Shown here: piece by piece, positions 9,967 to 28,895 of the stretch | Layout of the letters: the number at the start of each line of letters is the position of its first letter | How positions within the stretch are numbered: position 1 is the stretch's first letter | Source: an uncultured Gammaproteobacteria bacterium | GTDB taxonomy: Bacteria > Patescibacteriota > Patescibacteriia > Magasanikbacterales > GWA2-37-8 | Direction: 5' to 3' | Assembly (NCBI GenBank): GCA_964403325.1 | Contig: CAYOFO010000002.1 | Span: 1 to 52,014 of the forward strand | DNA: 52,014 bases | Made by a program: the position numbers and the translations under genes | The notes under the pieces: generated by a model | Seen by the model: only the letters and a program-made list of their open reading frames with translations | What the model was told of the DNA's origin: nothing | Database searches by the model: none

Positions 9967-10063
9967 TCAACAATTTTTAATAAAAAGCATTGACGTCAAA
10001 AGAGTTAGGACCTAGTATAAGCTCAATACCTGACGTTCAGGACAAAAAAACTTTTTCAAAAAT

Positions 10064-10444: not shown

Positions 10445-10449
10445 AAGGC

Positions 10450-10902
10450 TTGGTGTTTGTGAAAAAACCCTTTTTTTGGTCGGCAGTCACTCTGTCTGGG
10501 GTGCTGTTTTTAATTGATCAAACCTTAAAATTTTTTGCTTTAAACACTTCGGCTAAACTGTTCGGGGCAAATTTTGGTTGGCGCCCATTTCTTAATACTG
10601 GGATTGCTTTTGGAATACCTGTGCCAATATGGCTCGTGATAATTTTTACCCTGCCCGTACTTATCTATCTGGTGTGGTATATACAAAAAAATATTTTTTC
10701 TCCAGCTCACGCTTCCCTGGTTTTGGTGGTAGTCGGAGCTTTGTCAAACTTGTTCGATCGGGTGGTTTGGCAAGGAACGGTAGATTATTTTTTGGTTTAT
10801 ACGAGCATTTTTAATGTGGCGGATATTTTAATAGTGGTTGGGATAGTTGGTTTTTTATGGCTGTGGCGGGCAGAAAATTCAGGAGCGGTATTGAAAAAGT
10901 AA
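10450..10902 (+). CDS. lspA: lipoprotein signal peptidase II
   Basis: Four TM segments with LspA motifs NTGIAFG and DYF...FNVADI. The start is uncertain (TTG 10450, GTG 10453 or GTG 10459). Confidence 0.85.
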   Translation: MVFVKKPFFWSAVTLSGVLFLIDQTLKFFALNTSAKLFGANFGWRPFLNTGIAFGIPVPIWLVIIFTLPVLIYLVWYIQKNIFSPAHASLVLVVVGALSNLFDRVVWQGTVDYFLVYTSIFNVADILIVVGIVGFLWLWRAENSGAVLKK

Positions 10903-10998
10903 AAGTAAAAATCAGTTGATGTTATCCCCAAAAACCCGTGAGGGTTTTATTTTTATTTTATGGGTGGGGTGACATTATAGGACAAGATATTTTTATCT

Positions 10999-12513: not shown

Positions 12514-12560
12514 TTTGTTTAAGAAATTTCTTCGTGGTTGTCCTAAAGTAGAAAACCTGC

Positions 12561-13409
12561 CTACTCTGATTTTTCAAAAAGTTTGGCTTCCTTCATTAAA
12601 TCTTGCCACTGAGTTAGTTGGTCAAAAGTTAATTTATTTTGAATTGAGACATTAGCTTCAAGTCGTTGTATGCGGCTTAAAAAATCAACCAACCGGTTGA
12701 GTATTGGTTTGGCTTCCACAAACAACCTTTTGACGTTTATCATATCAGCATCCTCTAAGCTAGAGGCTTCTTTATTCATTTCAACACGCATCTCTTGGAT
12801 TAAGGAAGCAAGCTTTGTCAGCTCGGGTGCAAAGTTGTTTTCAACAAGAGTTAGCGCATCTTGTGTCTGGATTATCACGTCTGAATTTTTATCATCTTTC
12901 TTATTATGACCAAACCAAACAACACTAGTATGTTCGTAAGGATCACGAATTTGGCGATCGTTAAAATTTGTACGATCTACAGTTTGTTTATATCTGTATA
13001 TTCTGTCATTAAATTCGGATAAAATAAAACCAAGGTTACGTAAAAATTTTTTTATTTCTTTTTTATTTACCGGCTGTTCCTGACCAGGGATTGGTTCGTT
13101 AGCCGACAAGGATAAACCCTTTTCTAAACCTGTGACTGAATCACCAATTCTGTCAATTAAGTAGGCGCGCACTGTACGCTCCCTTTCCGTTGAAAGTAAT
13201 TGATAAGTATCTACAGAAGTAGGTTTTTGATGATCGCGGTAACGGTAAGCAGCGTTTACTCTGTCCGCTTCCTCTCTAAAAAAGGAGGTTCGCATGCTGG
13301 CTCGTTGTGATAATTCACTTTCTGCACAGCCCTCTTGGGTTATTCCACCTCCAAACAAAACTGTCATGAGAGCAAGTTCTTTTAAACCAGGTAAGCCGGG
13401 TTTCTTCAT
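12561..13409 (-). CDS. hypothetical protein (282 aa), N-terminal hydrophobic segment
   Basis: Clean ORF with no recognised domain. It is followed on the same strand by the 3D-domain gene. Confidence 0.5.
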   Translation of the reverse strand: MKKPGLPGLKELALMTVLFGGGITQEGCAESELSQRASMRTSFFREEADRVNAAYRYRDHQKPTSVDTYQLLSTERERTVRAYLIDRIGDSVTGLEKGLSLSANEPIPGQEQPVNKKEIKKFLRNLGFILSEFNDRIYRYKQTVDRTNFNDRQIRDPYEHTSVVWFGHNKKDDKNSDVIIQTQDALTLVENNFAPELTKLASLIQEMRVEMNKEASSLEDADMINVKRLFVEAKPILNRLVDFLSRIQRLEANVSIQNKLTFDQLTQWQDLMKEAKLFEKSE

Positions 13410-13453
13410 AAGAAAGAAATTAAAGTAAAAACCGTTAAAATTGTATGTTACAC

Positions 13454-14017
13454 TTAGTTCTTCGCCAATTTTTCTGCCTTACTTTTGCTATAAATTTCAA
13501 TAGTAATATTTCGTTTTACGCCAAATTTTCGAGCCTCAGCTTTCGAAGTATCCATCCAGATATCCATGCGATTTTGGCCGTTAAAACGTGGGTTCATGCG
13601 GTCATGGACTTCAAATACCTTGTCACCAAATAAAGCCGGGATTTTTATGAGCGTACCAAATGGCAACCAGTTGGCGGCCACGGTTGGGTTTTTGCTCACA
13701 CACACATTCGTGCCGTCCGCAGTGGTGCAAGGGTCGCCGTCAGTTTGGTCTGGAGTGCTGGTATAGGCCGTAAGCACAGTTAACACTTGTCGGTCTGGGC
13801 TAACAATCTCGACCGAGCGATGGAGCATTTCACCTTCCGCAGAGGTTTCAAGAGTGAGGCGAAGCGCCGAAAAGTCCTCTAATGAGGCTTTTTGAGCCGT
13901 TTCCACTACCTCGGCACGCACCGTTATAGGGTGGATCATGTGCACAAAAAAGGCTAAGATTGCCCACAAATTCATACAAGTGTGGAGAATGTCGCTTTTG
14001 GTCATTTGGTGTTTCAT
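13454..14017 (-). CDS. 3D-domain (MltA/RlpA-like barrel) secreted protein
   Basis: Signal or TM segment, then TAYTSTPDQTDGDPCTTADG...VAAN.LPFGT...V.DRM..R......DIWM, characteristic of 3D-domain cell-wall proteins. Confidence 0.75.
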   Translation of the reverse strand: MKHQMTKSDILHTCMNLWAILAFFVHMIHPITVRAEVVETAQKASLEDFSALRLTLETSAEGEMLHRSVEIVSPDRQVLTVLTAYTSTPDQTDGDPCTTADGTNVCVSKNPTVAANWLPFGTLIKIPALFGDKVFEVHDRMNPRFNGQNRMDIWMDTSKAEARKFGVKRNITIEIYSKSKAEKLAKN

Positions 14018-14130
14018 AAGGTTTCAACTAAAAAGATACCTTATTTAGGGTATCTGCTTGGTTAACGTCACAGTGTACCATAAAATTCGGGTTTTGTCAA
14101 CCCGGCGAGATAGGTTATAATAAGAAAACT

Positions 14131-16992
14131 ATGAATTCACCTTTACCACCTACCCGACCCATTCGTGATTACGGAAGTATAAAAAATACCACTTCAACCC
14201 CCCGTTCGGGGCACCAGGCCAGAAAAAAAAGGCAGGCCAACCTGGAACGATTGAAATGGTGGCTTTTAGTTCTAGGAACGACCACGGCCGGTTTATTTAT
14301 AATCGCCGCGGCAGTGCTTGGTATCATCAGTTTGGGGCTCGACCCAAACAAATTGCAAAATCGAGTGGTGACGGAAAGCACGAAAATATATGATCGTACC
14401 GGAGAGCATGTTCTCTACGAAATTTTTAACGACCAAAAACGAACCAATGTTAAATTGACCGATATTGCTCCGCTTTTACCAAAAGCAGTAATTGCAGTGG
14501 AGGATAAATATTTTTATGAACATAGCGGTATACGTATCGTGAGTATTTTGCGTGCCGGATTCAATAATCTGATTGGCCGGCGAACCGGTTCGGGAGGAGC
14601 CTCTACCCTTACACAGCAGCTGATTAAAAAAACTATTGTGGGCGATGAGCGCCGGGGATTTGCTGGGTATTTTAGAAAGATAAAAGAAGCGCTGTTGGCT
14701 AAAAAAATTGAAAAAAAATATACCAAAGACGAAATTTTAGCGCTTTATCTTAATGAGATTCCACTGGGTTCGACCAATTATGGCGTAGAGTCAGCGGCGC
14801 AGGCGTATTTTCAGAAAAGCGCCAAAGATTTGGATTTGGCGGAGTCGGCCACAATTGCGGGTATGATCCAAGCGCCGAGCCGGTATCTGAATGATCTTAA
14901 GTCGTTGCAAGATCGACGTGATTTGGTACTGCGCCTGATGTATGATCAGAAATATATTACTCAGGATGAAGAAAAAGCAGCTCAAGCCATACCACTCAAT
15001 TTTCATGCTGGGCGCGGGTTGTCGGTGGCGCCTCATTTTGTGCAATATGTAAAAGCCTTGCTGGCCGATAAGTTTGGTGAAAGTAATATTGATAGCCAAG
15101 GCTATAAAGTTATCACTACACTCGACTACGAAATGCAAACCAGAGCGGAAAAAATTGTGACCGACCTGGGGAATAAATTTTCTAAAGAATACGATGCTAA
15201 CAACGCGGCGCTAGTGGCCATCGATCCTAAAAATCAACAAATTTTAGCCATGGTTGGTTCGCGTGATTATAATAATATAGAAATTGGAGGCACAACCAAT
15301 CATGTTATACAAGATCCGCGCCAACCCGGTTCATCACTCAAGCCGTTTATCTACGCCGCGGCTTTTGAAAAGGGTTTTACGCCAGAGACTGTAGTATATG
15401 ATGTTACTACTGATTTTAATCAGTATGCGCCTAAAAATGCTGATGGTAAAGAATATGGTTTGGTGACGATGCGTAAAGCTTTGCAGGGTTCGCTTAATAT
15501 TCCAGCCATTAAAGCCCTCTATTTAGTTGGCATCAAAAACATGCTTAGTTTTGCCAAACGGTTCGGCTATACCAGTTTGGGTGAAGACGCGGGGTTAAGT
15601 TTGGCGATTGGGGGCAACGAAGTGGTGATGCTCGAACATGTCAATGCCTATGCCACTCTCGCGAACGGCGGCACGTATCGCCCCCCAACGAGTATTTTGC
15701 AAGTAACAAAACCAAGCGGTGAAAAAGTATTTGAGTGGCAGGATACCCAAAAACAAACAGCGGTAACGCCAGAGTTGGCCGCTACAATTGCTAATGTTTT
15801 AACGGATAATGCTTCGCGCACGTATATTTTTGGAGCCAATAATTCCATGGTTTTGCCAGGTGGGCGACCGGTAGCTGCCAAAACCGGTACGACGAATGAG
15901 GATAAAGATGCTTGGACCATTGGGTATACGCCATCACTCGTAGCCGGGGTATGGGTGGGCAATTCACCACGGCGAACACCAATGAAGTTTGGGGGGAATA
16001 AATTGGCGGGTAGTATTTGGAATGAGTTTATGAAACAAACCCTCGACAAAACACCAATCGAAAAATTTCCGACCCCGCCGTCAAACGATGCGCAAAAAGC
16101 GGTTTTACGCGGCAGTGATAATGGAATAAAAATTCCGGTGAATATTATTACCGGGAAAATCGCCGCATCTTCGACACCGTTGAATTTGGTGCGCGAGGAA
16201 ACATTTTTGCCGCCGCACGATATTTTGTTTTATGTCAACAAAGATGATCCGCGCGGACCGGTGCCAGACCACCCAGAATCAGACCCGCAGTATCAAGGTT
16301 GGGAAAATGCTTTGCAAAGCTGGGCCACCCGAATGGCCGCCGCCGGTAAAGCTGTAAATTTTTCTTCGCCACCGACTGAGGTTGATACGCCGCAATCACT
16401 CGAATTGGTGCCAGAGCTTGAAATTGTCTCGCCTGCGGCCAGCTCCACTCTGACCAATCGCAACATTGTATTGAGTGTTAAAACTTCTTCACCGCGCGGA
16501 GTGGTGCGGGTAACGTATCAGATAGACGGTTTCACAGTAAATACTGCCACCAATCCTCCGTTTGAGCACACCTTCTATGCCCAGCAACTAAGTCCGGGTA
16601 TTCACACTCTCAAAGTAATTGCCAGCGATGATCAAGGAAATTTTGCCCAAAAAGACAACATGTTTACTTTAGATGCACCGTTTGATCCGCCGGATATTAG
16701 TTGGGTGGATGCTTCGCCCCTCAGTCTTAAACTGAATGTATTTCCTCGAGTTTTCTTTTTAAACCCATTTCGGTATGAAGAAATGAAAGAAATACAAGTT
16801 TATCTATCTTCCCAAACTGATCCGCAGAGAAAACTTATTTTTACCTTTAATAAAAACGATGAACTGTTTAATCGCCAACTATTTTTTACTTGGAAAAATT
16901 CAACTGGAGTCGGTACGTACACACTTTATGTGGTTATGACAGACAAAGCTGGACGGACCGTAGAAAAAACCTTGGAAGTGAATGTTGAATAA
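14131..16992 (+). CDS. class A penicillin-binding protein (glycosyltransferase + transpeptidase) with long C-terminal extension
   Basis: GT51 motifs EDKYFYEHSGI and GGSTLTQQL. Transpeptidase motifs SSLKP (SxxK) and KTGTT. About 300 extra C-terminal residues look like beta-rich Ig-like modules. Confidence 0.92.
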   Translation: MNSPLPPTRPIRDYGSIKNTTSTPRSGHQARKKRQANLERLKWWLLVLGTTTAGLFIIAAAVLGIISLGLDPNKLQNRVVTESTKIYDRTGEHVLYEIFNDQKRTNVKLTDIAPLLPKAVIAVEDKYFYEHSGIRIVSILRAGFNNLIGRRTGSGGASTLTQQLIKKTIVGDERRGFAGYFRKIKEALLAKKIEKKYTKDEILALYLNEIPLGSTNYGVESAAQAYFQKSAKDLDLAESATIAGMIQAPSRYLNDLKSLQDRRDLVLRLMYDQKYITQDEEKAAQAIPLNFHAGRGLSVAPHFVQYVKALLADKFGESNIDSQGYKVITTLDYEMQTRAEKIVTDLGNKFSKEYDANNAALVAIDPKNQQILAMVGSRDYNNIEIGGTTNHVIQDPRQPGSSLKPFIYAAAFEKGFTPETVVYDVTTDFNQYAPKNADGKEYGLVTMRKALQGSLNIPAIKALYLVGIKNMLSFAKRFGYTSLGEDAGLSLAIGGNEVVMLEHVNAYATLANGGTYRPPTSILQVTKPSGEKVFEWQDTQKQTAVTPELAATIANVLTDNASRTYIFGANNSMVLPGGRPVAAKTGTTNEDKDAWTIGYTPSLVAGVWVGNSPRRTPMKFGGNKLAGSIWNEFMKQTLDKTPIEKFPTPPSNDAQKAVLRGSDNGIKIPVNIITGKIAASSTPLNLVREETFLPPHDILFYVNKDDPRGPVPDHPESDPQYQGWENALQSWATRMAAAGKAVNFSSPPTEVDTPQSLELVPELEIVSPAASSTLTNRNIVLSVKTSSPRGVVRVTYQIDGFTVNTATNPPFEHTFYAQQLSPGIHTLKVIASDDQGNFAQKDNMFTLDAPFDPPDISWVDASPLSLKLNVFPRVFFLNPFRYEEMKEIQVYLSSQTDPQRKLIFTFNKNDELFNRQLFFTWKNSTGVGTYTLYVVMTDKAGRTVEKTLEVNVE

Positions 16993-17109: not shown

Positions 17110-20100
17110 ATGCCAAAAAGAAAATTTTTATTTGCCATTTTTGTATGTTTTAGTTGCTTGTTATGTTTGGTGCAAATTTTGCAGGCAGCACCCAGTGACA
17201 TTATTATTAACGAAATTGGCGGCTATCCTACCAGCACCCATGAATGGGTAGAAATTTGGAATCGCAGTAGTGCTGCAGTAGATATAAAAGACTGGAAATT
17301 TTGGGAAAATAATACCAATCATACTTTGGCAGCAGTTGGTAGGTCTTCCGCCACAATAAACGCTGGTGAGTACGGAGCTATTTGCCAAGACGCCGATCGT
17401 TTTTTACTCGATCACCCGGACTTTAGCGGCGTGGTCCTAGATTCAGCTTGGATCAGTCTGAGTGAACAGGGAGAAGAAATCGGCCTTAAAGATAGTGCAG
17501 GAAACTTTGTAGAAAAACTTGTTTATATTCCCTGGAGCAAAGCTGCACTGGAGCGCAAGGATCCATATCTGGATGATTATACGGCCAACAATTGGCAAGA
17601 GCGACAGAGTGGAGATACGGTTGGTTTTGTTAATAGTAATGTAAAAATAGTGGTGGCTTCCACCACACCCTTTCCTTCCGTTACCTCAACATTAGAAACA
17701 GTAACACCAACCACGAGTTATGAAATAGTTTTACCAACCAGCACACCTATTCTTACCACCTCCACACCATCGCCCACCTCAACCATAAGTATTTCTCCCA
17801 TTGATCCGCCATCAGTCTTGCCAGCAGAAGTTACCAGCACAGTGAGTATTGCCACCACCTCACCAAACTGGCAACAGATCAAAATAAATGAATTTGTTTC
17901 TTATGTGGATACTGGCCAGGAAGAATGGGTGGAGCTATTTAACACAGCCACTACTTCAATTACGTTGAACGGTTTAGTTTTGTGTGATGGTCGTGAAGGA
18001 AGTTGTGCTATAGCAACTCCAACCGGAACCATGGCCGCAGGGTCTTGGCAGACTGTTGTGCTAAGTGGTAACCACCTTAACAATGATGCTGATACGATTC
18101 TTCTCAAAGATCCACTCGGTACTATTTTGGATTCAGTGAGTTATGCCAACAAAACTGCACCCGCTAAAGGCAATAGTTTGGCGCGCATAAGTGATGGTGT
18201 GGATACGGACAAAGATACTGACTGGGCAATTACGACCACTGCTACACCAGGGGAAAATAATCGTATTACTACGCCGGTAGTAGCGCCACCTTTTAGTCGT
18301 GAGATTAATCGGTCGAGCGAGATTGTTGGGGCGGTTATCAAAACCAACCCGGTCGCGGTAAACACAGGAGTTATCTTGAATGAAATTTTTCCTAATCCGG
18401 CTGCGGTCGCTGACACCGAATACATTGAAATAAAAAATACGAGTACAGTGGCCGTGGATATTTCCGGTTGGAAAATTCAAGATGAGGGTGCGAGCTATGT
18501 GTTGGATGGAAGTTTATTGCCCGGACAGTATGCTGTTTTTTATCGCGCGCAAACCAAAATTGCTCTTAATAATACCGTAGCTGAAAAAGTGCAATTATTC
18601 ACCAAGACAGGAGAAGTAAGCAGTGAGGTAAGTTATGCTAGCGCCAAGAAAAATCAAAGCTATAGTTACGACGGGGTGCAATGGCACTGGACCAATACGA
18701 TTACTCCTGGGCAAGAGAATATTTTTGTTGAGCCAGTTCCGTTGGTAAAAGTTGAAAATCAATCAATTTTAAAGATTCAGAATCCGACATTTACAGAAGT
18801 GGGAGAAAAAATTACTTTGAGTGCGGTGGGGTCAGCGGATCGGTATGGGAAAGTTCCGCAGATAGAGTGGTATGTAGACAATAAAATTCTAAAGGGAGCG
18901 CAAGCGCATTATGTTTTTACCCAGCCGGGCATATATCAAGCGCGGGTCATCTTGACCCTGCAAACAGGAGAAAAACAAGAAAAATTTTTTACTATTGTGG
19001 TAGGCGAAGCAGCTTTGCTTAAAAATAAAAAAATATCTTTAGCTGAAGTATATCCCAACCCGGTTGGAAGTGATATGGATGAATTTATTGAGCTTTTCAA
19101 TAATACTACCACCACACTCGACATTTCCGGCTGGAAGCTTAAAAATAAGCACACCTTTGTTTTTGCAACAGGTACGGTGGCCAACGCCGGAGAAAGGCTA
19201 GTGTTTTATCGTTCGATTACCAAATTAGCCTTAAGTAATACCAACGAATTGGTAGAGTTGGTAAACAGCGAAGGTCAAACAATTGATGTTCTGCGTTATA
19301 CAAAAGCTCCCGAAGGAAAAAGTTTTAATAGTATGGCTGTAAGCAAGGAATGGGGTGAACCATCACCAGGCGAAGATTTTATAGAATCTGTAGACGAGAA
19401 CGCCCAAGACGAAACAACAAGCGGGTCAGCTGCGTCCGAGAAAGCAAAAAAAGTATCTGCCGGTAAGAAAAATATTCCCATAGCCATGACTGTTGAGCAG
19501 GCGCGTGAACAGGATAAAGATACGATGGTAAAAATTGAAGGGCAGGTAACAGTCTTGCCCGGAATTTTTGGCTCACAGTATTTTTATATTCAAAGCGCCA
19601 GTTCGGGTTTACAGATTTACCAGAGTGCTAAAAAATTTCCCAACCTAAAAATAGGTGATAGAGTTGAGGTGGTGGGAAAAATAAGCGAAGCAAGTGGTGT
19701 GAAGCGAGTATCAGTAAAAAATAAAGAAGGTATTGTAGTATTATCGTTGCAAGGAGCACTTGCTCCTCAGTCCATTTTAGCAACAGAAATAGGGGAAGAA
19801 AGAGCGGGGCAATTAGTAACCCTGAGTGCGGATATAACAGAAGTAAAAACCAGTATGGTGTATATAGATGATGGCGAAGCTGAGGGTGTGGTTGTGTTTA
19901 AAAAAGGTGCACAGATAAATAAAAAACTCTTAAAAGAAGGAGAAAAAGTTCAAGTAATCGGTGTGGTCGAGCACTCGGGTGCAGGTTGGCAAATCTGGCC
20001 ACGTAGCCAAGCAGATATGGTGGTAAAAAACGAGATCGTAAAAAAAGACAAAGAGGGTGTATTGGTTACAGGGTCTGTTCCCACAGCCGATAGTAAAGCA

Positions 20101-20238
20101 GCGAGAGTGATAGTAATTTTTGGGGTAGGAGCACTTTTAGTTGCTTGGATAGTACGGTTTCGCGGTGCTCTTGTTCAAGAGTGGTTTAAAAGAATCTTTA
20201 AAAGATCGGGAGAGATTATTGGTCGTGGTCGGGGTTAA
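17110..20238 (+). CDS. large surface protein: 4x lamin-tail domain, Thr/Ser/Pro linker, PKD-like module, OB-fold-like domain, C-terminal TM anchor
   Basis: Signal peptide, then four repeats of the LTD signature (IIINEIG...EWVEIWN; IKINEFV...EWVELFN; VILNEIFPNP...EYIEIKN; ISLAEVYPNP...EFIELFN). A T/S/P-rich tract spans about 17650-17870. A C-terminal hydrophobic helix is followed by basic residues. Confidence 0.75.
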   Translation: MPKRKFLFAIFVCFSCLLCLVQILQAAPSDIIINEIGGYPTSTHEWVEIWNRSSAAVDIKDWKFWENNTNHTLAAVGRSSATINAGEYGAICQDADRFLLDHPDFSGVVLDSAWISLSEQGEEIGLKDSAGNFVEKLVYIPWSKAALERKDPYLDDYTANNWQERQSGDTVGFVNSNVKIVVASTTPFPSVTSTLETVTPTTSYEIVLPTSTPILTTSTPSPTSTISISPIDPPSVLPAEVTSTVSIATTSPNWQQIKINEFVSYVDTGQEEWVELFNTATTSITLNGLVLCDGREGSCAIATPTGTMAAGSWQTVVLSGNHLNNDADTILLKDPLGTILDSVSYANKTAPAKGNSLARISDGVDTDKDTDWAITTTATPGENNRITTPVVAPPFSREINRSSEIVGAVIKTNPVAVNTGVILNEIFPNPAAVADTEYIEIKNTSTVAVDISGWKIQDEGASYVLDGSLLPGQYAVFYRAQTKIALNNTVAEKVQLFTKTGEVSSEVSYASAKKNQSYSYDGVQWHWTNTITPGQENIFVEPVPLVKVENQSILKIQNPTFTEVGEKITLSAVGSADRYGKVPQIEWYVDNKILKGAQAHYVFTQPGIYQARVILTLQTGEKQEKFFTIVVGEAALLKNKKISLAEVYPNPVGSDMDEFIELFNNTTTTLDISGWKLKNKHTFVFATGTVANAGERLVFYRSITKLALSNTNELVELVNSEGQTIDVLRYTKAPEGKSFNSMAVSKEWGEPSPGEDFIESVDENAQDETTSGSAASEKAKKVSAGKKNIPIAMTVEQAREQDKDTMVKIEGQVTVLPGIFGSQYFYIQSASSGLQIYQSAKKFPNLKIGDRVEVVGKISEASGVKRVSVKNKEGIVVLSLQGALAPQSILATEIGEERAGQLVTLSADITEVKTSMVYIDDGEAEGVVVFKKGAQINKKLLKEGEKVQVIGVVEHSGAGWQIWPRSQADMVVKNEIVKKDKEGVLVTGSVPTADSKAARVIVIFGVGALLVAWIVRFRGALVQEWFKRIFKRSGEIIGRGRG

Positions 20239-20297
20239 GGCTTGCTTTATGGTTTATTTTATGATATTTTATTTGGGTAAATAAACATATTCACCCA

Positions 20298-20385
20298 GGA
20301 AGGGTGGCCGAGTGGTTTAAGGCAACAGTCTTGAAAACTGTCGTGTCGCAAGGCACCGTGGGTTCGAATCCCACCTCTTCCGCCA
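20298..20385 (+). tRNA. tRNA-Ser (anticodon UGA), CCA encoded
   Basis: Cloverleaf read by hand: acceptor GGAAGGG/CTCTTCC, anticodon stem ACAGT/ACTGT with loop CU-UGA-AA, long variable arm, T-arm GTGGGTTCGAATCCCAC, then G-CCA. Confidence 0.93.
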
Positions 20386-20654
20386 GTATTAAAATAAGCG
20401 CATTCACAGCGCCTATTTTTTTAAATGGTAGGTAAAAATAAATTTATGAAATTTGTTTTTGGGATAAATCCGTCGCAAGAGATAAGAAAGAGAATTGTGG
20501 TGTTGCAAAAAATTTTAAACAATTTCAAATTACTTTTGAAACAGTAGAAAGTTTTGGATAAGTCGTTGTTTTTGGTATAAGTTTCTTATTTTATTCTTTG
20601 CTCGTTTCATCGTTGATTTTTAAAACTGAAGCAAACTAAATACATTTAATAAAT

Positions 20655-21847
20655 CTAATTTAATTGCAATTCTTTCATGAAAAATGTAAGTCTTGTTCTA
20701 GCTTCTTCTAAACTCATTCGATCGTTTAAGTTACAGGTAAGCAAGTTTGCGATATCAAAAATTTTTTTAAAAATATCCTCAAACTTTTCTTTTGGCAGTT
20801 GTTTTGGATTGCTAAGCTCTGTCCATTCACCCCTTCTATTTACCAGAGCATGTTTTAGTGCCGTGCCAATTTCATAATTCATCCGACTGGCAGCCATAGT
20901 ATTATCCACTTGATGCGGATCGTTATAAGAAGGCCGGTTAGGCATAAGTAAATTTCCTTTGTTTAAGACTACGTTCGCTCGCTCACCAATAATATAAATT
21001 CCATCAAGATCAAATAATAATGCCCGATAGGTACCCGAAGCGGTTTTTACTACGCCAATATTATCAAGACTTAAGTCTTGAATCATCAAACCGTTTTTCT
21101 GCAAAAATTCACATACTGCGATAACATCCATCATAACGGATAAAAGATCAGACAAAGACCAAGGAAGATCGAAGGTTAATCCATCCAGTTTTGTTTCTAT
21201 GGTTTCTAGGTCCGGGTAATGTTTTACGCATAGAGTATCCCTATCTGGAAAGTACTCAAAAATTTCAACAATATTGTCATGAGGCAAAATTTTACATAAA
21301 TGTTGCATGGCTCGTCGATGAATGCGTCGATTGTGTAAGTCGATAAATTTTTTTCCATCATCTCGATAAACAACAGTTGCACCAGAAAAGTTTTCGCCAT
21401 ATGCAACTACATTCTTGGTACGAGAATTTTCGTAACTTCCATTGAACCATTTTTTAGGATAAATAACCGTTTCATTTCTTCCGTAGTAAGTTCGCCGCTT
21501 AAACGGTGTTTTATTTCAGTGTCGAGCGCTTTTTGCAAATAAAAAATTGCCATATCGAAATGCCTTAGATCATGGCCATCCAAAGGCATGTTTTGGCTAT
21601 TCATGTGCTCTCGCAAACGATAGAGTAAATGTTCGGTTTCTAAGCCTTGAGCGATCACCATTTCATCAGTACTTCTGTCCAGTCGTAAAAATTCATCGGT
21701 AATAGCTTGGACGAACTCTTTAAAAACATCGGGAGAAATGGGGGATTCATCGGTCGTAAGACGATTATAAAAAGCTTCAAGATGCGGGTTGTCAATAATA
21801 TGGACCATAAGAATTTTCAGTATAACAAAGTCTAAAATTGGCGGCAA
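20655..21847 (-). pseudogene. eukaryotic-like Ser/Thr protein-kinase-like gene split by a frameshift
   Basis: The 146-aa ORF (21847-21407) and the 217-aa ORF (21308-20655) are in different frames. The downstream frame stays open back to 21515 and reads ...KNVVAYGENFSGATVVY...HDNIVEIFEYF (G-loop/N-lobe), continuous with MIQDLSLDN (catalytic loop) and LFDLDG (DFG-like), but it has no start codon. The frames overlap at 21410-21515, which contains an A6 run (21450-21455). Confidence 0.55.
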
Positions 21848-21905
21848 GGAGAAAAATATAGTATTCTTCTATCAATTCCTATGCTTATAGTTAACGATAA
21901 ATCCT

Positions 21906-22550
21906 ATGTCCCCATCCGAAATAAACGAACTCGCGCAAATTATTTGGGATTATCACCATCTTAACCACGGGCTTAAAAAAACCGAAGCCATTTTGGTTTT
22001 GGGTAGTCACGATGTGCGAGTGGCGGAGTACGCAAGCGATTTGTATTTGGCTGGCTACGCACCACTCCTTATTTTCTCCGGTGGATTTGGCCACCTTACC
22101 CAAGGCGTCTTTGCAAAACCTGAAGCTGAACTGTTTGCGGAAATCGCCGTTCGTAGAGGTGTGCCGCGCGCGAGCATTTTAAAGGAAAACCGTTCTACGA
22201 ATACGGGAGAAAATATTGTGATGGTTCGCACGCTTCTTCAGGAAAAAGGTTTAAACACTCAATCTTTTATTGTGGTACAAAAACCGTATATGGAACGGCG
22301 CAGCTATGCCACATTTAAAAAAGTATGGCCCGAGCCGGAAATAATAGTCACTTCGCCACCAATTTTATTCGCCGATTATCCAATCCCGGGTATAACACGC
22401 GAGCAAGTGATAAATATAATGGTAGGGGATTTGCAGCGCATAAAAATCTACCCAGACAAAGGTTTTCAAATTCCGCAGGCAATTCCGCAAAATGTTTGGA
22501 GTGCCTACGAAAAACTCGTGGCCGTGGGGTTTACGAACGAACTAGTTTAG
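21906..22550 (+). CDS. YdcF/DUF218-family protein
   Basis: ILVLGSHD...FSGG.G...EA......A...GVP...I..E..STNTGEN pattern typical of DUF218. Confidence 0.75.
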   Translation: MSPSEINELAQIIWDYHHLNHGLKKTEAILVLGSHDVRVAEYASDLYLAGYAPLLIFSGGFGHLTQGVFAKPEAELFAEIAVRRGVPRASILKENRSTNTGENIVMVRTLLQEKGLNTQSFIVVQKPYMERRSYATFKKVWPEPEIIVTSPPILFADYPIPGITREQVINIMVGDLQRIKIYPDKGFQIPQAIPQNVWSAYEKLVAVGFTNELV

Positions 22551-22598
22551 GTTTGTAATTTTTATGTTAAGGAGTAAAATAAAAATGTTTATTTTTCG

Positions 22599-23327
22599 AT
22601 GAGTCACCGTAGAGTTATGAGTAACAATTATTTTTTGAAACAAAAAGAAAGTGTCCAAGAGCTGGAAAACTCTTTTGCTAACGGGGTTGGTAGGTCAACA
22701 GTAGTTGAAATGCAAAAAAATTATGCCGATGATGATCAAATATGTCTAACCTCGGTAGTTTTTATCCCCCAAGACATTTCTCAAAAGATTGTGGTGAGTA
22801 TTATTGAAAAATTAAAACAAATTGATCCGGGTCATTATTTTTATTCACCAGAATCAATGCATTTAACCATTAAAAATGTAAGAACAATAAATAAGCCGCC
22901 TTTATTTTCTGAAATAGACATCAATAAAGTAAACCGGTTATTGTGCGAGATGGTTCCACAGTTCCCGGTGTTTGAATTGAGCGTTGAGGATGTTCTTTTG
23001 TTTCCCACGAGTTTATCAGTTATGGCTTACTCAAACGAAACTTTGCAAAAATTAGTTTTGGCTTTAGATAAGGGTTTGCAAGAAATTGGTGTACCGGACA
23101 ATAAAAAATATTTTTCAAATTCTATATTCTGGGGGAACATAACCATTTGCCGGTTCACGCAACCTCCATCACCTGATTTTATTGATGAGGTCAAAAGGAT
23201 GAGAAATGTAAAAATTGGAAAATTTAAAGTTAAAAAAGTAAACTTGGTTACTTCTAATGCAGTGTGTTTTCCAGCATCGAGAAATATAATTGGAGAATAC
23301 GAGTTAAGAAAAGATTTGGTACTCTAA
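22599..23327 (+). CDS. 2H-phosphoesterase (LigT-like) superfamily protein, second catalytic motif degenerate
   Basis: The first HxT motif is present (ESMHLTIKNV). The position expected for the second reads FWGNITICRF (Asn in place of His). The assignment is tentative. Confidence 0.4.
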   Translation: MSHRRVMSNNYFLKQKESVQELENSFANGVGRSTVVEMQKNYADDDQICLTSVVFIPQDISQKIVVSIIEKLKQIDPGHYFYSPESMHLTIKNVRTINKPPLFSEIDINKVNRLLCEMVPQFPVFELSVEDVLLFPTSLSVMAYSNETLQKLVLALDKGLQEIGVPDNKKYFSNSIFWGNITICRFTQPPSPDFIDEVKRMRNVKIGKFKVKKVNLVTSNAVCFPASRNIIGEYELRKDLVL

Positions 23328-23471
23328 AAAAAATCTGTAATATTCCTGTTTGGAAGATGAGCCTCTTCTTCTAAGGGCTTTATAGTTATAAAATAACCGT
23401 AGGGCCTTGAAATAATGACAAAAATGGGTATAATGCCCCTACCCAACAGTAGTATACAATAAAAAAATCAT

Positions 23472-23558
23472 GGAGAGGTGTCTGAGTGGTTGAAAGTACC
23501 GCTCTCGAAAAGCGGAGTCCCCGAAAGGGGACCGAGGGTTCGAATCCCTCCCTCTCCG
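23472..23558 (+). tRNA. tRNA-Ser (anticodon CGA), CCA not encoded
   Basis: Acceptor GGAGAGG/CCTCTCC, anticodon stem CCGCT/AGCGG with loop CU-CGA-AA, long variable arm GTCCCCgaaaGGGGAC, T-arm GAGGGTTCGAATCCCTC, discriminator G. Confidence 0.93.
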
Positions 23559-23586
23559 CAACATCGTGCTGGTATAAAATAGTTTA

Positions 23587-23691: not shown

Positions 23692-25731
23692 ATGAAAGAG
23701 AAGCAAATCGCGCAACTGGTAAAATCGGATGGCAAATATGATCTTACGATTTTTTCACCAGAAAGTATTGATAGAATCGAAAGCAGTATCTTTGAAAAGG
23801 GGGGTAAGTTTTTTTTAAAGTGTTTTAAAAGAAATAAAGATATTCAAGTAAAACCGGAAGAAATAGTTCGGCAGTTGATGCTGGATAAACTTATCAGCGA
23901 ATATGGTTATTCGGTTGATTTGCTGGATGTGGAATATACGGTGAATTTCGGTAGAGAGAAAAAATTTGCCGATATTGTCATTCTTAATAAGGCCGACAAA
24001 ACCAGTGTTTATTGCGTTTTAGAAATTAAAAAACACAACGCCAAAGACGGCAAAGACCAACTTAAAAGCTATACCAACGCAACGGGTGCTCCATTGGCCG
24101 TATGGACAAACGGTGTTGAGATTAATTACTACGAACGCCTCGACCCAAATTATTTTGAACCGCTTTCAAGCATTCCTAAAGCCACTGAAACGATTGATGA
24201 CGTAAAAAATGAGCGATTTACCTATCTGGAATTGATGCTCAAAGATAGGCTTACTGAAGAAAGAAAATCACTCAAAGATTTAATTCAAGAAATGGAAGAT
24301 GAGGTTTTGGCCGGTGCCGGCGTTGATGTGTTTGAAGAAGTTTTTAAACTGATTTTCACGAAATTGTACGATGAGATGGAAAGTGCCGATGATCGGGTGG
24401 AAATAGAAACACAATGCAAGCTCTTAAAAAAGAAAAATCCGGAATTAACCGACAAGCAAATTTTTGAACAAATAAATAACGATGATTTTAGAAAACTGGA
24501 GTTTCGAAGCCGTGGTGACGCTCACCATACCAAAGAAGTGATCAACGAGCTCTATAAAAAAGCCAAAACCAAATGGCAAGGTATTTTTGAACAAGGCGAA
24601 CCGCTGCGCATTACCGATGAAAACCATCTGCAAATTTGCGTTGGTTTTTTGCAAAATGTAAAGCTATTTAATTCCAATTTGCAGGTTATAGACGAGGCTT
24701 TTGAATACTTGGTCAACAAATCTGCCAAAGGGGAAAAGGGACAATATTTCACGCCCAGAAACGTGATTGACATGTGCGTGTACATGATGAATCCGCAGCC
24801 GCACGAATATATGATTGATACGGCGTGTGGCAGTTGTGGATTTACGGTGCACACCCTTTTTAACGTGTGGCAAAAATTGGTGAACCAGGGAAAAGCGCGA
24901 TTTGCCAATTTCTCAAACCAAAAACTGACCAGCGACCAAAAAGAATATGTTAACAAAGTTTTTGGTATAGATTTTGATGAAAAATCCGTTCGTGTGGCCC
25001 GCACGCTCAACATGATTGCGGGAGACGGAAAAACCAATGTATTGCATTTAAATACTTTGGATTACACCCGGTGGGAAGAAAAATTAAAAGATAGCTCATG
25101 GGCAAAAACATATTTAGACGGATATTACAGGCTGCTTGATTTGGCAAAAAATCGCCAAATTCCGAAAGAATTTAATTTTGATATCGTGATGGCTAACCCG
25201 CCGTTTGCGGGAGATATAAAAGATAGTCGACTCATTTCCAATTATGAGGTGGCCTTTGACGGTAAAGGCAAAAAAGCCAATAAAGTTTCGCGCGATGTGT
25301 TGTTTATCGAAAGAAATTTGGATTTCCTCAAACCGGGTGGAAGAATGGCGATTGTGCTTCCGCAAGGCAGGTTTAACAACACCAGCGATGAAAAGATTCG
25401 AAGTTTTGTAATGGAAAAAGCCAGGCTAGTGGCGGTGGTTGGGCTGGACGGCAATACTTTTAAACCGCACACGGGCACAAAAACTTCCGTTTTGTTTATC
25501 CAAAAATGGGACGATGTGATAAATCCGAAAGTTGATGATTACGAAATTTTTATGGCTGTTTCGGAATGTTCGGGCAAAGACAATTCTGGTCTGGAGATGT
25601 ATGAGAAAGATGAAACGGGGGAAAGAAAGCTCGATGAGCATAATCACCTAATCCAAAAACACGATCTCAAAGAAATTGCCGAGGCTTTTGAAAAATGGGC
25701 GAGAGGGCAGAAACTCAGTTTTTGGAAATAG
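23692..25731 (+). CDS. N6-adenine DNA methyltransferase with N-terminal HsdR_N/PD-(D/E)xK-like domain (Type IIB/IIG-like or Type I M subunit)
   Basis: Catalytic NPPF (MANPPFAG) and a SAM-binding region (IDTACGSCGF). The N-terminal ~170 aa contain FADIVI...(17 aa)...LEIKK, a D...ExK arrangement as in restriction-endonuclease folds. Confidence 0.88.
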   Translation: MKEKQIAQLVKSDGKYDLTIFSPESIDRIESSIFEKGGKFFLKCFKRNKDIQVKPEEIVRQLMLDKLISEYGYSVDLLDVEYTVNFGREKKFADIVILNKADKTSVYCVLEIKKHNAKDGKDQLKSYTNATGAPLAVWTNGVEINYYERLDPNYFEPLSSIPKATETIDDVKNERFTYLELMLKDRLTEERKSLKDLIQEMEDEVLAGAGVDVFEEVFKLIFTKLYDEMESADDRVEIETQCKLLKKKNPELTDKQIFEQINNDDFRKLEFRSRGDAHHTKEVINELYKKAKTKWQGIFEQGEPLRITDENHLQICVGFLQNVKLFNSNLQVIDEAFEYLVNKSAKGEKGQYFTPRNVIDMCVYMMNPQPHEYMIDTACGSCGFTVHTLFNVWQKLVNQGKARFANFSNQKLTSDQKEYVNKVFGIDFDEKSVRVARTLNMIAGDGKTNVLHLNTLDYTRWEEKLKDSSWAKTYLDGYYRLLDLAKNRQIPKEFNFDIVMANPPFAGDIKDSRLISNYEVAFDGKGKKANKVSRDVLFIERNLDFLKPGGRMAIVLPQGRFNNTSDEKIRSFVMEKARLVAVVGLDGNTFKPHTGTKTSVLFIQKWDDVINPKVDDYEIFMAVSECSGKDNSGLEMYEKDETGERKLDEHNHLIQKHDLKEIAEAFEKWARGQKLSFWK

Positions 25732-25734
25732 ATT

Positions 25735-26667
25735 ATGGTGCAGTATAAAAAATTATTCAATAAATCAGAAATTGAATACATTACACCATTTTTGAAATTA
25801 TGGATGTCTTTTAACAATTGGTATAAGCAAGATTTGTTGAGTGTTTTGGTGAAAGTTATTGATCAGGACGGAAATGTCAAAAAAAACATAGACGGCACTG
25901 ATAAAGAAAAAAAACTTACGACAGACGGTGAGGCAATAAACTTTTACAAAACTGGTGGATCAGTAAAAACAGAATTTTTAAGATTACTGCAAGGCAGATC
26001 AAACGCCGACGAAAAGTTTCAGGACGCCCTGGCTCGCTTTGTCAAAAATGTCGCGGACTGCAATTATGATGGTTTTGAGTATCCCAGCGATTTGTTTGCA
26101 AGAAATCCAAGCGAGAGAGCTATTCATAGTAAATCATTAGTATTTATCTCTGCCCATACTAAAGAGTTTTATTTCACGTCTGGAGATGAAAACAGATTGT
26201 TTGAAACCACACTGGAGTTGATTTATCAGATTAGGTGCAAGTTGGTGCATGGAGATTTTGATATTGAAGACGAAATTTTTTTAGATTTTGTTGAAAAATC
26301 GTATCGCATACTATACCCAATTATGGAAAAGATATTTGAAACTCAAGCTAACGGAGAGTTTTACTTAAAAAGTATAACGAATAATGTGGAAGCTCAGGGG
26401 GTGTTTAACGAGGGTAAAATGTATGTGCTAGCAGGATCTAAGGTTAGAAAAGAAACGGTGCCTTCATATAGCAATGCTAATGAAAGAAATGTTATTTTGA
26501 GCGAGAAAGCAATTGAAGAAAAAAATTGTTATATGATAAAGGAAAGAATAGAGTTTTCGAGCCCGAGTGCCGCATCCTCGTTTTGTTTGGGGAACAGCTC
26601 TAATGGTTGGGAAGACTGGAAGACGAGGTCGGGGAAAACAATGAATGATGTTTTGAGACAAAATTAA
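25735..26667 (+). CDS. HEPN-like (Rx4H) N-terminal domain fused to C-terminal DUF4357-like domain
   Basis: YQIRCKLVHG (R167-x4-H172, nt 26233-26250) sits in a predicted helical region. The C-terminal ~100 aa read ...MYVLAGSKV...ERIEFSSPSAASSFCLGNSSNGWEDWK, matching the DUF4357 signature as I remember it. The start lies 3 nt after the M stop, and the stop lies 1 nt before the S start. Confidence 0.6.
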   Translation: MVQYKKLFNKSEIEYITPFLKLWMSFNNWYKQDLLSVLVKVIDQDGNVKKNIDGTDKEKKLTTDGEAINFYKTGGSVKTEFLRLLQGRSNADEKFQDALARFVKNVADCNYDGFEYPSDLFARNPSERAIHSKSLVFISAHTKEFYFTSGDENRLFETTLELIYQIRCKLVHGDFDIEDEIFLDFVEKSYRILYPIMEKIFETQANGEFYLKSITNNVEAQGVFNEGKMYVLAGSKVRKETVPSYSNANERNVILSEKAIEEKNCYMIKERIEFSSPSAASSFCLGNSSNGWEDWKTRSGKTMNDVLRQN

Positions 26668-26668
26668 T

Positions 26669-28021
26669 ATGGCAAAAATAAGTTATATAAAATACGTTGA
26701 TATTCTTGAAGCTCGCAGATATGATGCGGAGTATTTTAAGCCTGAGTACTTGAGTTTAGTAAAAAAGTCGTCTAATAAAAAAAGATTCAAAGAATTTCGC
26801 GATCTTAACTTAACTGTTGATGCCAGTGCTTTTTATCCATCAATAGAACCTCTATATAATACTGGAAATTTACCTTTTTTAAGAGTGGCAAATGTTGATA
26901 AGCAGATTGATTACAATTCAGCGGTTACTATTCCAGAAGAAATTTTGAATGACTTTAAAACTATAAAAAAAGCGAATTACGGTGATATTGTTATTACTAA
27001 AGGTGGAAGTGTTGCACGATTAGGGTTTGTGGATAAAGAAAGTGCATTAAGCAGAGATTTAATCGTTATAAATTCATCAAGATTAAGCCCTGGTGATTCT
27101 AAGTATTTGTATTTTTATCTGTTATCAGACTTCTCGAATAGTCTTTTTTTGAGAAGTTCATCTTTGACAGCACAACCTCATTTAACCATTTTTCAAGTAA
27201 GAGAATTGCCTCTATTTTACCCGGAAGAATCATTTAGAAAAGAGGTCGCAGATTTATTTGACCGGTCTGTCCAAAAACAAACGGAGTCCAAACAACTCTA
27301 CCGTGAAGCCGAAGTGTTGCTTTTGCACGAGCTCGGGCTATTGAATTATAAAGTTAAACACTCGCTTTGGTTTACCGCCACCAAACAACAAGTTAAAGCA
27401 GCAAAAAGATATGACAGCGAATATTTCCAACCGAAATACGCGGAGATTATAAAGAAAATCGAAAATTATGAGGGTGGGTGGGATTTTGTAAAAAATCAAT
27501 TCAACCAAAACACTAAACTCTCAAAAAAAGAATGGAACTACTGCAATTACATTGAAATCAGTGATGTAAACACTTCAAATGGAGAAATTACGCCAAATAG
27601 AGTTGAAACAAAAGATATTCCAGCAAATGGGAAAAGAAAATTGTTTAAAAATGACCTGTTGATTTCTAAAGTTAGACCATATCGTGGAGCTGTTTCGTTT
27701 ATTGATTTTGAAGTTGAAAATTTGATTGGAAGTGGGGCATTTACAGTTTTGCAAGAAAAGACGGATTTTAAAAAAGAAGTTTTGATGATATTTTTAAAAA
27801 CACAATTTATAAAAGATTTGCTTTTACGTTATAATTGCGGAACTTCTTACCCTGTAATTAAAGATGAAGATATTTTGAATCTTAAAATTCCTCTCATCAA
27901 ACCACAAATCCAAAAACAAATCGCCGAAAAAATCCAAGAAAGCCACAGGCTAAGAAAGGAAGGCAAAGAGTTGCTCGAAGAAGCCAAAAGAAAGGTGGAA
28001 AAAGAGATAGAAAATGGGTAG
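26669..28021 (+). CDS. restriction-modification specificity (HsdS-like) subunit with two target-recognition domains
   Basis: Internal duplication: RYDAEYFKPEY near the N-terminus and RYDSEYFQPKY at about aa 246. Each is followed by a variable TRD and a conserved helical spacer (…QIAEKIQESHRLRKEGKELLEEAK). Confidence 0.85.
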   Translation: MAKISYIKYVDILEARRYDAEYFKPEYLSLVKKSSNKKRFKEFRDLNLTVDASAFYPSIEPLYNTGNLPFLRVANVDKQIDYNSAVTIPEEILNDFKTIKKANYGDIVITKGGSVARLGFVDKESALSRDLIVINSSRLSPGDSKYLYFYLLSDFSNSLFLRSSSLTAQPHLTIFQVRELPLFYPEESFRKEVADLFDRSVQKQTESKQLYREAEVLLLHELGLLNYKVKHSLWFTATKQQVKAAKRYDSEYFQPKYAEIIKKIENYEGGWDFVKNQFNQNTKLSKKEWNYCNYIEISDVNTSNGEITPNRVETKDIPANGKRKLFKNDLLISKVRPYRGAVSFIDFEVENLIGSGAFTVLQEKTDFKKEVLMIFLKTQFIKDLLLRYNCGTSYPVIKDEDILNLKIPLIKPQIQKQIAEKIQESHRLRKEGKELLEEAKRKVEKEIENG

Positions 28022-28097
28022 CAAAAAGACATTATAGAAATAAATCCCCATCTTGCCGAAATAGTTTTTTCAATTAACCATTTTGACACTAAACACC

Positions 28098-28895
28098 ATG
28101 CGCATCATTTCTTGGAACATCAATGGAATTCGAGCGGTACACAAAAAAGGTTTGTTCGTGCCTTTTGTTGAAAAGTATAAACCGGATATTTTGTGTTTGC
28201 AGGAAACCAAGGCGAAGCAAGACCAGAGCGAAGTCGATTTGCCCGGCTACGAAGAATATTGGAATTCCGCGGTGCGGCCAGGCTACAGTGGCACAGCTAT
28301 TTTTACCAAGCTAAAACCACTTTCCGTAACGCTCGATATTCCCAAAAATATTGCCGAGAAGCATGGTCTTGTGAGCGATGCATATGGCGACCCGAACGCC
28401 GAGGGCAGGGTTACGGCTTTAGAATTTACAGATTACTACGTTGTTACCGTGTATACACCAAACGCTAAAGACGATCTGTCCCGCATTCCTTTGCGCCACA
28501 AGCAGTGGGATCCGGCATTTCTTGATTATGTGTGTCAGCTTGAAAAAAAGAAACCAGTTATATTTTGTGGCGATTTGAATGTGGCACACAGCGAAGACGA
28601 TCTGGCGCGTCCTAAAGAAAATGTGGGTAATAAAGGGTTTACCTATGAAGAGCGCGAGGGGATCGATAACATGGTGAAGCAGAATTTCGTAGACACTTTT
28701 AGAATATTTACCAAAGGCAACGGCCACTACACTTGGTGGAGCCATTTTGGTGGTGCCCGTGCTCGCAATGTTGGTTGGAGAATTGATTATATTTTTGTGA
28801 GTCAGAAATTAGCACCAAAAGTTTCGCAAGCCACCATTCATGCTGATGTTTTAGGATCAGATCATTGTCCAGTAGTGGTTGAAATAGATCTTTAA
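28098..28895 (+). CDS. xth: exodeoxyribonuclease III
   Basis: MRIISWNINGIRA, LCLQETK, GDLNVAH and SDHCPV are canonical ExoIII/APE motifs. The start is trimmed to ATG 28098. Confidence 0.92.
   Translation: MRIISWNINGIRAVHKKGLFVPFVEKYKPDILCLQETKAKQDQSEVDLPGYEEYWNSAVRPGYSGTAIFTKLKPLSVTLDIPKNIAEKHGLVSDAYGDPNAEGRVTALEFTDYYVVTVYTPNAKDDLSRIPLRHKQWDPAFLDYVCQLEKKKPVIFCGDLNVAHSEDDLARPKENVGNKGFTYEEREGIDNMVKQNFVDTFRIFTKGNGHYTWWSHFGGARARNVGWRIDYIFVSQKLAPKVSQATIHADVLGSDHCPVVVEIDL

Follow-up and report, generated by a model that had tools for sequence, protein, structure and literature searches.

Among the Type IIB restriction-modification (RM) enzymes, BsaXI is known from cryo-EM structures (8W0P, 8W2P and 8W2Q; PMC11997821) in which an N-terminal PD-(D/E)XK nuclease, a helical connector and a gamma-class N6-adenine methylase make up one RM chain, and a separate S protein with two target recognition domains (TRDs) is the specificity subunit. 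Substitutions E73A, D90A, E105A and K107A each abolish cleavage by BsaXI, and absolute conservation of these residues among Type IIB enzymes is reported (PMC11997821). An operon of similar design, referred to here as A-X-S after its three genes, is present in a contig of 52,014 nucleotides from an uncultured bacterium (CAYOFO010000002.1; this whole stretch of DNA is called the window). The A and S products of this operon probably constitute a helicase-independent Type IIB enzyme of the 'RM + S' subgroup that includes BcgI and BsaXI, and X appears to be one of many interchangeable defence-type cargo genes and not a part of the A-S core.

A and BsaXI are alike in the order of their nuclease, connector and methylase, and both systems use a separate two-TRD S protein, but A has 679 aa against the 916 aa of BsaXI and is without the C-terminal knob and double-helix paddle of the latter. 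It ends where the knob and paddle begin and terminates in a single conserved helix, as do other RM + S Type IIB enzymes; such a lone C-terminal helix has been described for BcgI, for example, the methylase of which has an M.EcoKI-like fold (PMC11997821). By description BcgI also resembles A-S in its two-gene logic, in its domain order (an A subunit with nuclease and methylase, a B subunit for specificity) and in being helicase-free. Type I enzymes (EcoKI and EcoR124I, of composition HsdR2M2S1) share with A-S a homologous methylase core, a two-TRD S and the variation of S on a constant partner, but in contrast to them the present system is without an HsdR motor and has an HsdR-type nuclease fused to the N-terminus of its methylase.

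The Type IIB reading follows from this nuclease and methylase architecture, the homology to BsaXI, the conserved catalytic residues, the linkage of A to S and the lack of an HsdR nearby. On this reading the A family, so far uncharacterised and carrying the wrong label, is a new member of the known Type IIB kind and not a new kind of system, and current understanding is not overturned by what is found in A-X-S; the cargo slot between A and S and the XN family are the parts most worth follow-up.

The fused nuclease and methylase of A

The N-terminal part of A matches the Pfam family HSDR_N_2, which has a nuclease fold, with E = 1.4e-24, and its larger C-terminal part matches N6_Mtase with E = 1.4e-34, Eco57I also being matched. 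Motif I (DTACGSCGF) lies 5' of motif IV (NPPF), which is the gamma-class order. The initial annotation of this DNA had described just such a protein, a gamma-class N6-adenine methyltransferase with NPPF preceded by a nuclease fold, and both parts of the description are borne out. It had also noted a D...ExK arrangement, which is correct, and a spacing of 17 aa between FADIVI and LEIKK, which is not: 12 residues separate the two stretches, and it is from D94 to E111 that 17 positions are counted.

A comparison of A with known structures and a check of the D, E and K residues in homologues had been proposed there as well, and both favour a working nuclease. The top sequence match of A in the PDB is the RM chain of BsaXI (8w0p, E = 2e-25), with nuclease and methylase both aligned and, at the N-terminus, residues 34-126 of A set against 24-121 of BsaXI. 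When a family profile built from 23 diverse relatives (30-58% identity) was used, BsaXI was matched at E = 1.2e-73 in a single colinear stretch running from profile position 32 to 562 and from BsaXI residue 22 to 631. The Type I HsdM structures gave E values of about 1e-32 with the same profile and aligned only from position 204 onward, and from this late start it is clear that they lack the nuclease part.

In the alignment to BsaXI, residues E81, D94, E111 and K113 of A are placed with E73/E75, D90, E105 and K107 respectively. Conservation was assessed across 58 sequences, comprising 56 cluster representatives with the domain (33-59% identical to A), A itself and BsaXI. D94 is present in all 58; at position 81 there are 53 glutamates and 3 aspartates; E111 is kept in at least 90%, and K113, Q123 and Y127 in 51, 53 and 52 of the sequences. 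The full nuclease motif set of A is E81, D94 and E111-x-K113 together with Q123-x3-Y127, and the whole E-D-ExK set plus QxxxY is kept by A and by about 90% of its diverse relatives. The QxxxY motif is known from RecB-family and HsdR nucleases.

The specificity subunit S

S contains two Pfam Methylase_S stretches and two copies of a conserved motif, RYDAEYFKPEY (aa 17-27) and RYDSEYFQPKY (aa 247-257), so that its earlier description as an HsdS-like protein with two TRDs and duplicated motifs stands. Its two halves share just one 22-aa stretch and are otherwise dissimilar. In PADLOC, S is matched by the Specificity_I and mad5-like models. With 450 aa it is longer than the B subunit of BcgI, which has about 340 aa.

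Across related loci the S proteins are 31-55% identical, as against 77-92% for their A partners, and this diversity of S over a constant A is what is usually seen when specificities are exchanged on an unchanging catalytic partner. The many S variants are a possible source of bipartite specificities for 2b-RAD-type methods.

Membership of the MADS systems was considered for A and S, A being homologous to MAD2 (E = 1e-88) and S to MAD5 (E = 1e-29), and was rejected: the scores are 298 and 103 bits against NCBIfam equivalog cut-offs of 720 and 400 bits, and the three-gene operon has no room for other mad genes.

Relatives of A and the search for HsdR

The A family is large, with more than 8000 proteins at E <= 1e-10 (three Pfam domains being shared by all 120 among the matches listed) and 7077 cluster representatives at E <= 0.001. 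Database entries for its members read either 'N-6 DNA methylase' or 'type I restriction enzyme M protein'. They are common in Patescibacteria and occur also in DPANN archaea, Clostridia, Campylobacterota, on a Klebsiella IncF plasmid and on a cyanobacterial plasmid. The top matches, 78-93% identical to A, are spread over several lineages of Patescibacteria and over Endomicrobiaceae, Bacteroidales and Alphaproteobacteria. By lineage, identity to A is 87% in Ignavibacteria, 84-89% in Saccharibacteria, 79% in a metagenome-assembled genome (MAG) of the archaeal Aenigmatarchaeota, 77% in Cloacimonadales, 75% in SAR324 and 66% in a MAG of the archaeal Woesearchaeota; a further clade at 51-57% identity includes Clostridia, Sulfurimonas, Gammaproteobacteria and others. 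A homologues are also found on two IMG/VR contigs. If these relatives are truly self-contained Type IIB enzymes, the restriction repertoire of ultra-small uncultured organisms would be under-counted.

A scan for A relatives with one genome per species gave 80 loci, and the 74 of these with an A open reading frame (ORF) of more than 400 aa were used for linkage. S lies downstream on the same strand in 59 of the 74 and is fused to A, as a single restriction, modification and specificity (RMS) chain, in 3; no S was detected in the remaining 12, and in each of these the contig ends within 2.6 kb of the end of A. Thus every locus with enough contig has S either downstream of A or fused to it.

HsdR was not found within 10 kb of A-S in any of these 74 species-level loci. 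Walker A plus DExH motifs were seen in none of the 58 ORFs of at least 600 aa from the A-type loci and the window, and the ten large ORFs closest to A-S encode KAP NTPase, TPR, NACHT, SbcC-like, HATPase and metabolic proteins and no HsdR. This negative result draws on the search for these motifs and on the ten ORFs just named, and a Pfam scan of 36 further large flanking ORFs (best 25 of 112 families) does not count towards it. In the window, where the large ORFs were scanned with Pfam, neither HsdR nor a superfamily 2 (SF2) helicase is present among the ORFs of the 52 kb, as had initially been stated; just two ORFs exceed 700 aa, encoding one PBP1A-type and one lamin-tail-domain protein, and the remaining large ORFs that were scanned either are housekeeping genes or lack a Pfam match.

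Some A relatives, at about 50-58% identity, are longer proteins (907-1210 aa) in which a Methylase_S domain is fused on (P0243 of 1210 aa, P0244 and P0382). These have the single-chain RMS layout, which is the second known Type IIB layout.

One such chain is encoded on plasmid pAQ6 of Picosynechococcus sp. PCC 7002 (NC_010480.1, L088 7998-11537), where a 1179-aa homologue, annotated merely as 'N-6 DNA methylase', is 54% identical to A over aa 5-679. A 2025 methylome of PCC 7002 reported a bipartite N6-methyladenine motif, GGA(N5)CTTC, with no assigned enzyme (PMC12362590), and this motif and the pAQ6 homologue might belong together. Plasmid 2 of Klebsiella pneumoniae INF231 (NZ_LR890357.1, L089 7974-15928), which is a conjugative IncF plasmid, carries in order an A gene (49% identical), an S gene, an XN-like gene of 263 aa (IYAMRNALLHGE) and two DUF262 genes, and offers a culturable and clinically relevant host for the system. 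A Patescibacteria contig (L042) has two A-type/S-type pairs, at 9998-14687 and 18705-21891, with a separation of about 6.7 kb from the first end to the second start as recorded; the second A-like ORF is shorter, at 591 aa, and overlaps its own S gene.

The cargo slot between A and S

We know of no gene embedded between the RM and S genes of BsaXI. In the A-type loci A and S are separated by anything from -43 to 5955 nt. The separation is below 300 nt in 22 loci, where the slot is taken as empty, and reaches 300 nt or more in 37, and the roomy slots are filled with co-oriented ORFs, 63 in total when X of the window is included, which fall into 3 recurrent clusters and 38 singletons. A slot may hold from 0 to 7 such genes, drawn from about 40 unrelated families, of which many are defence-type. 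Representatives are an AAA_15/AAA_21 ATPase (12 loci), an OLD-like ATPase-TOPRIM protein, Fic/DOC (4 loci), Schlafen AlbA_2 with HATPase_c_4, GmrSD_N and DUF6119; further cargo includes KwaB-like, DUF6978, DUF1828, HEPN_LA2681 and Bro-N proteins. When the 63 cargo ORFs were run through PADLOC, 13 matched OLD/AriA/GajA/PtuA models and 7 matched PDC-S05.

The borders of the slot are conserved, with A ending in ...KLSFWK* and S starting with MxQISYIKYxDVLEARRYDA, and in three close relatives of the operon (L020, L029 and L074; 77-86% identity) the slot is empty. Loci of Hma, BREX, DISARM and Type I RM systems have been described with defence genes embedded in them (Payne et al. 2024, bioRxiv 10.1101/2024.01.29.577857), and the A-S slot matches this published nesting in multi-gene immune loci. 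X is similar to the embedded genes of that survey and of the PADLOC PDC models in lying between RM genes and in a C-terminal part that matches PDC-S14, and the cargo of the sister loci is similar in its OLD-like ABC ATPases, GmrSD-like and HEPN proteins. In contrast to the Hma, BREX, DISARM and Type I cases (bioRxiv 10.1101/2024.01.29.577857), the host system here is Type IIB-like and the slot borders are sharply conserved, and XN, the N-terminal domain of X, has no Pfam entry and seems to be peculiar to the present RM family. So sharply bounded a slot makes a clean natural system for studying the exchange of defence genes within an immune operon.

Gene X and the XN domain

X consists of an N-terminal domain, called XN here, fused to a C-terminal DUF4357/RAMA-like domain. 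The match in PADLOC to PDC-S14, a family of phage-defence candidates (E = 5e-24), covers aa 192-307 alone, that is the DUF4357 part, and the N-terminal domain differs. DUF4357 is known only as a fusion partner of GIY-YIG, GmrSD and McrB-type proteins (PMC4619093, PMC11090510), and from these partners a role as a nucleic-acid reader may be proposed for DUF4357 of X. A literature search on HSDR_N_2, DUF4357 and PDC-S14 found nothing bearing on the function of the A family.

Homologues of X share its first ~205 aa, and XN either makes up a whole protein (182-236 aa) or is joined to a DUF4357 or a RhuM domain. In 26 homologues Y164, R167, L170 and H172 are invariant within IYQIRCxLVHG, as is an N-terminal helix, EYITPFLKLWMSFNxWY, and more distant XN members retain [ILV]Y..R[CNS]..[VMF]H, some of them in the canonical HEPN form LRNALFH. 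The Rx4H motif is a candidate active site of the XN domain. The AlphaFold2 (AF2) model of X is confident, with a predicted local distance difference test (pLDDT) score of 91.5, and aa 1-207 are mostly helical in it. A Foldseek search with this model gave no match at E < 0.001 in PDB or BFVD, no PDB sequence match was obtained with the family profile, and Pfam run on 26 + 10 members of the XN family gave a single weak match, HEPN_RiboL-PSP at E = 0.049 in one member (P0176). As there is no fold, PDB or firm Pfam match, XN is called 'Rx4H-motif, possibly HEPN-like' and nothing further.

XN of about 200 aa seems to be an undescribed family that occurs only adjoining S genes of A-type loci, and it is a candidate RM-coupled effector. 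It was detected in about 15 of the 74 species-level loci, and the A-type loci and the window together have 14 XN ORFs from 12 distinct loci. XN is upstream of S in the clade of the window (the window, L001, L013, L014 and L016, the contig of the last ending before the S gene) and downstream of S in the 51-54% clade and on the Klebsiella plasmid. Four further XN homologues, picked solely for their long contigs, all lie between a gene with HSDR_N_2 and N6_Mtase and an S gene.

Proposed mode of action and competing explanations

Taking the (RM)2S assembly of BsaXI and the A2B assembly of BcgI as models, we infer the stoichiometry, the type of target and the double-sided cleavage of A-S. Two A subunits would bind one S, the contacts being made by the C-terminal helix of A and the conserved regions of S. 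An asymmetric bipartite target would be read by the two TRDs, which are dissimilar. On host DNA the methylase domains of A would use S-adenosylmethionine to place an N6-methyl group on one adenine per half-site, and on unmethylated DNA the N-terminal PD-(D/E)XK domains (E81, D94, E111 and K113) would cut at fixed distances, probably on both sides. HsdR and ATP-driven translocation would have no part in this. For X we infer a second layer of defence, probably either independent or RM-coupled, that would act via the Rx4H domain (possibly a HEPN-like RNase) and DUF4357.

Several points weigh against assigning A and S to Type IIB. No biochemical or methylome data were found for A or any close homologue, and the similarity to BsaXI is remote, at roughly 17-30% identity. 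The paddle that is missing from A contributes to cleavage in BsaXI, and the likeness to BcgI is drawn from published descriptions of that enzyme. The AF2 model of A is poor (pLDDT 56.6, from a shallow alignment of 78-90% identical sequences), and the Foldseek search with it, which gave BsaXI first at a low TM-score, was not used as independent evidence. The E and K residues are lost in a few of the most distant relatives (P0257, P0324, P0373, P0364 and P0263), and the nuclease domain is therefore not universally catalytic. PADLOC, like the source annotations, classes the A family as 'Type I methyltransferase' (PDLC03034, 863 bits), and the view of the genome is a contig of 52 kb, so that an hsdR may lie at a distance.

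Database labels and the short contig would both suit an ordinary split Type I system, in which A and S form the methylase core, an HsdR encoded elsewhere does the cutting and the N-terminal domain of A is accessory. Type I HsdM proteins (EcoKI, StySJI and EcoR124I) are homologues of the methylase portion of A, S is a typical HsdS, and databases use the name 'type I restriction enzyme M protein' for the family, although this label reflects naming and not a test. However such a system seems most improbable given that no HsdR is seen near A-S in the related loci or in the window, that A itself has an HsdR-type nuclease domain with conserved catalytic residues, that fused RMS relatives exist, and that the best characterised homologue is Type IIB and not Type I. 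It is also conceivable that A and S are an orphan pair for methylation only, with a non-cutting PD-(D/E)XK domain that serves DNA binding, regulation or assembly. Many PD-(D/E)XK domains are non-catalytic, some distant relatives have lost the E and K residues, and cleavage by A is a prediction from its sequence. The near-general retention of E-D-ExK and QxxxY makes the orphan pair unlikely, as do the diversification of S under a constant A, which is the pattern expected under defence-type selection, and a slot that attracts defence genes.

In a third reading X, not A, would be the real effector, acting by restriction or abortive infection, with A and S only marking self DNA and giving specificity. 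X is packed tightly between A and S, its XN family was met only beside S genes of A-type loci (in 4 of 4 blind look-ups, in addition to the ORFs counted above), its Rx4H motif is invariant, and PrrC embedded in EcoprrI is a precedent for an effector inside an RM system. Yet XN is confined to a minority of the related loci, close relatives have an empty slot or unrelated cargo, the nuclease of A is intact and no HEPN or nuclease structure matches the fold of the X model, all of which leaves X as the real effector very unlikely. The initial annotation had offered two readings, a BcgI-like Type IIB system or an M+S module in which the middle gene had replaced restriction. The former is upheld by the BsaXI homology, the kept cleavage residues, the constant presence of S and the lack of HsdR, and the latter is not, because the nuclease residues of A are intact and because the slot is empty in L020, L029 and L074 and holds unrelated genes elsewhere. 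Extending the Type IIB assignment of A-S, one might picture A-S as a mobile chassis that moves across phyla and domains and has its defence genes swapped by recombination in a docking slot, with XN as a new effector family, coupled to S or to A2S and acting as a PrrC-like guard that is released or activated when a phage disables restriction; this is a speculative proposal and on balance a doubtful one.

Layout of the operon and horizontal transfer

The three ORFs are co-oriented on the + strand with gaps of 3 nt (A-X) and 1 nt (X-S), and the tight packing first noted for them is confirmed by the ORF coordinates (Table 1). They are the only three genes between tRNA-Ser and xthA. A promoter and terminator scan of the operon gave counts not above those for shuffled sequence, and in the 132-nt spacer between the tRNA and A the promoter scan found no consensus promoter.

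Table 1. Positions of the features of the A-X-S operon and of related loci (positions of the window unless a locus is named)
Feature	Position	Strand	Remarks
Gene A	23692..25731	+	679 aa, fused restriction and modification subunit (putative)
PD-(D/E)XK nuclease domain of A	23854..24177	+	aa 55-162, HSDR_N_2
Predicted catalytic residues of A	E81 23932-23934; D94 23971-23973; E111-I-K113 24022-24030	+	from BsaXI alignment
QxxxY motif of A (Q123-Y127)	24058-24072	+	RecB-type, conserved in alignment
Gamma-class N6-adenine methyltransferase domain of A	24685..25698	+	aa 332-669, N6_Mtase
Motif I of A, DTACGSCGF	24817-24843	+	aa 376-384
Motif IV of A, NPPF	25195-25206	+	aa 502-505
Conserved C-terminal helical tail of A	25639-25728	+	tail residues invariant among close homologues
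Gene X	25735..26667	+	310 aa, embedded cargo gene
XN domain of X	25735-26355	+	aa 1-207, without credible Pfam match
IYQIRCKLVHG motif of X	26221..26253	+	R167-x4-H172, HEPN-type Rx4H signature
DUF4357/RAMA-like domain of X	26488-26643	+	aa 252-303; DUF4357 E = 7e-16, RAMA E = 0.002
Gene S	26669..28021	+	450 aa, HsdS-like specificity subunit, two different TRDs
Repeated conserved motifs of S	26717-26749 and 27407-27439	+	
tRNA-Ser(CGA)	23472..23559	+	ARAGORN; 132 nt upstream of A
Exonuclease III-type gene (xthA)	28083-28895		3' of operon, followed by a ZnuA/TroA-type ABC transporter operon
XN members in related loci	L001 12061-12654; L013 12026-12904; L014 13108-14085; L073 13421-14158; L084 13625-14362; L089 11398-12189; L170-L173		
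A relative, Aenigmatarchaeota MAG	L026 408-2447		
A relative, Woesearchaeota MAG	L034 6716-8770		
Loci with cargo between A and S			L004, L006, L008-L011, L015, L017, L018, L023-L028, L031, L033, L034, L036, L037, L039-L042, L044, L047-L049, L051, L053, L056, L058, L059, L081

Mobility of A-S is very likely, to judge from the identity of A across phyla and domains and from the plasmid copies. A proteins are 77-92% identical across several bacterial phyla, and such identity across phyla and domains points to recent transfer between them, or to binning errors. Acquisition of the operon by horizontal transfer, as first proposed, is thus probable through the likeness of A across phyla and DPANN archaea, and the grounds then given for it, a neighbouring tRNA and a dip in G+C, are weak. 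The G+C of the operon is 0.367 (A 0.397, X 0.356, S 0.332) against 0.416 for the window, a mild dip that is common to the DNA just upstream (0.363 in the 3 kb at 20386-23471), and the tro/znu operon, which had been put above one half, has 0.483. Even with 3 mismatches allowed, the window contains no second copy of the 3' end of tRNA-Ser that could mark a far border. The tRNA as an integration site was rejected on this ground, and because the borders of the operon show neither direct nor inverted repeats of note and an integrase is absent. No empty site was found among 80 metagenome loci with xthA relatives (67-85% identity); A, S, troA, the tRNA and the genes upstream of it are shared by none of these loci.

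Elsewhere in the window dnaA (6543-7925) and dnaN (8214-9326) sit where the cumulative GC skew is lowest (about 8-9 kb), and for this reason the contig probably spans the replication origin, with the RM operon about 15 kb away on the leading strand. A 1042-aa protein (17110-20238), in which four lamin-tail domains and one PKD domain are recognised along with a weak match to an OB-fold, adjoins a 953-aa PBP1A-type protein with Ig-like domains; given these domains, both look like large surface proteins. Just 5' of tRNA-Ser(CGA) is a 242-aa ORF (22599-23327) with no Pfam match and a G+C of 0.337; it equals the S gene in A/T-richness and might likewise have been acquired.

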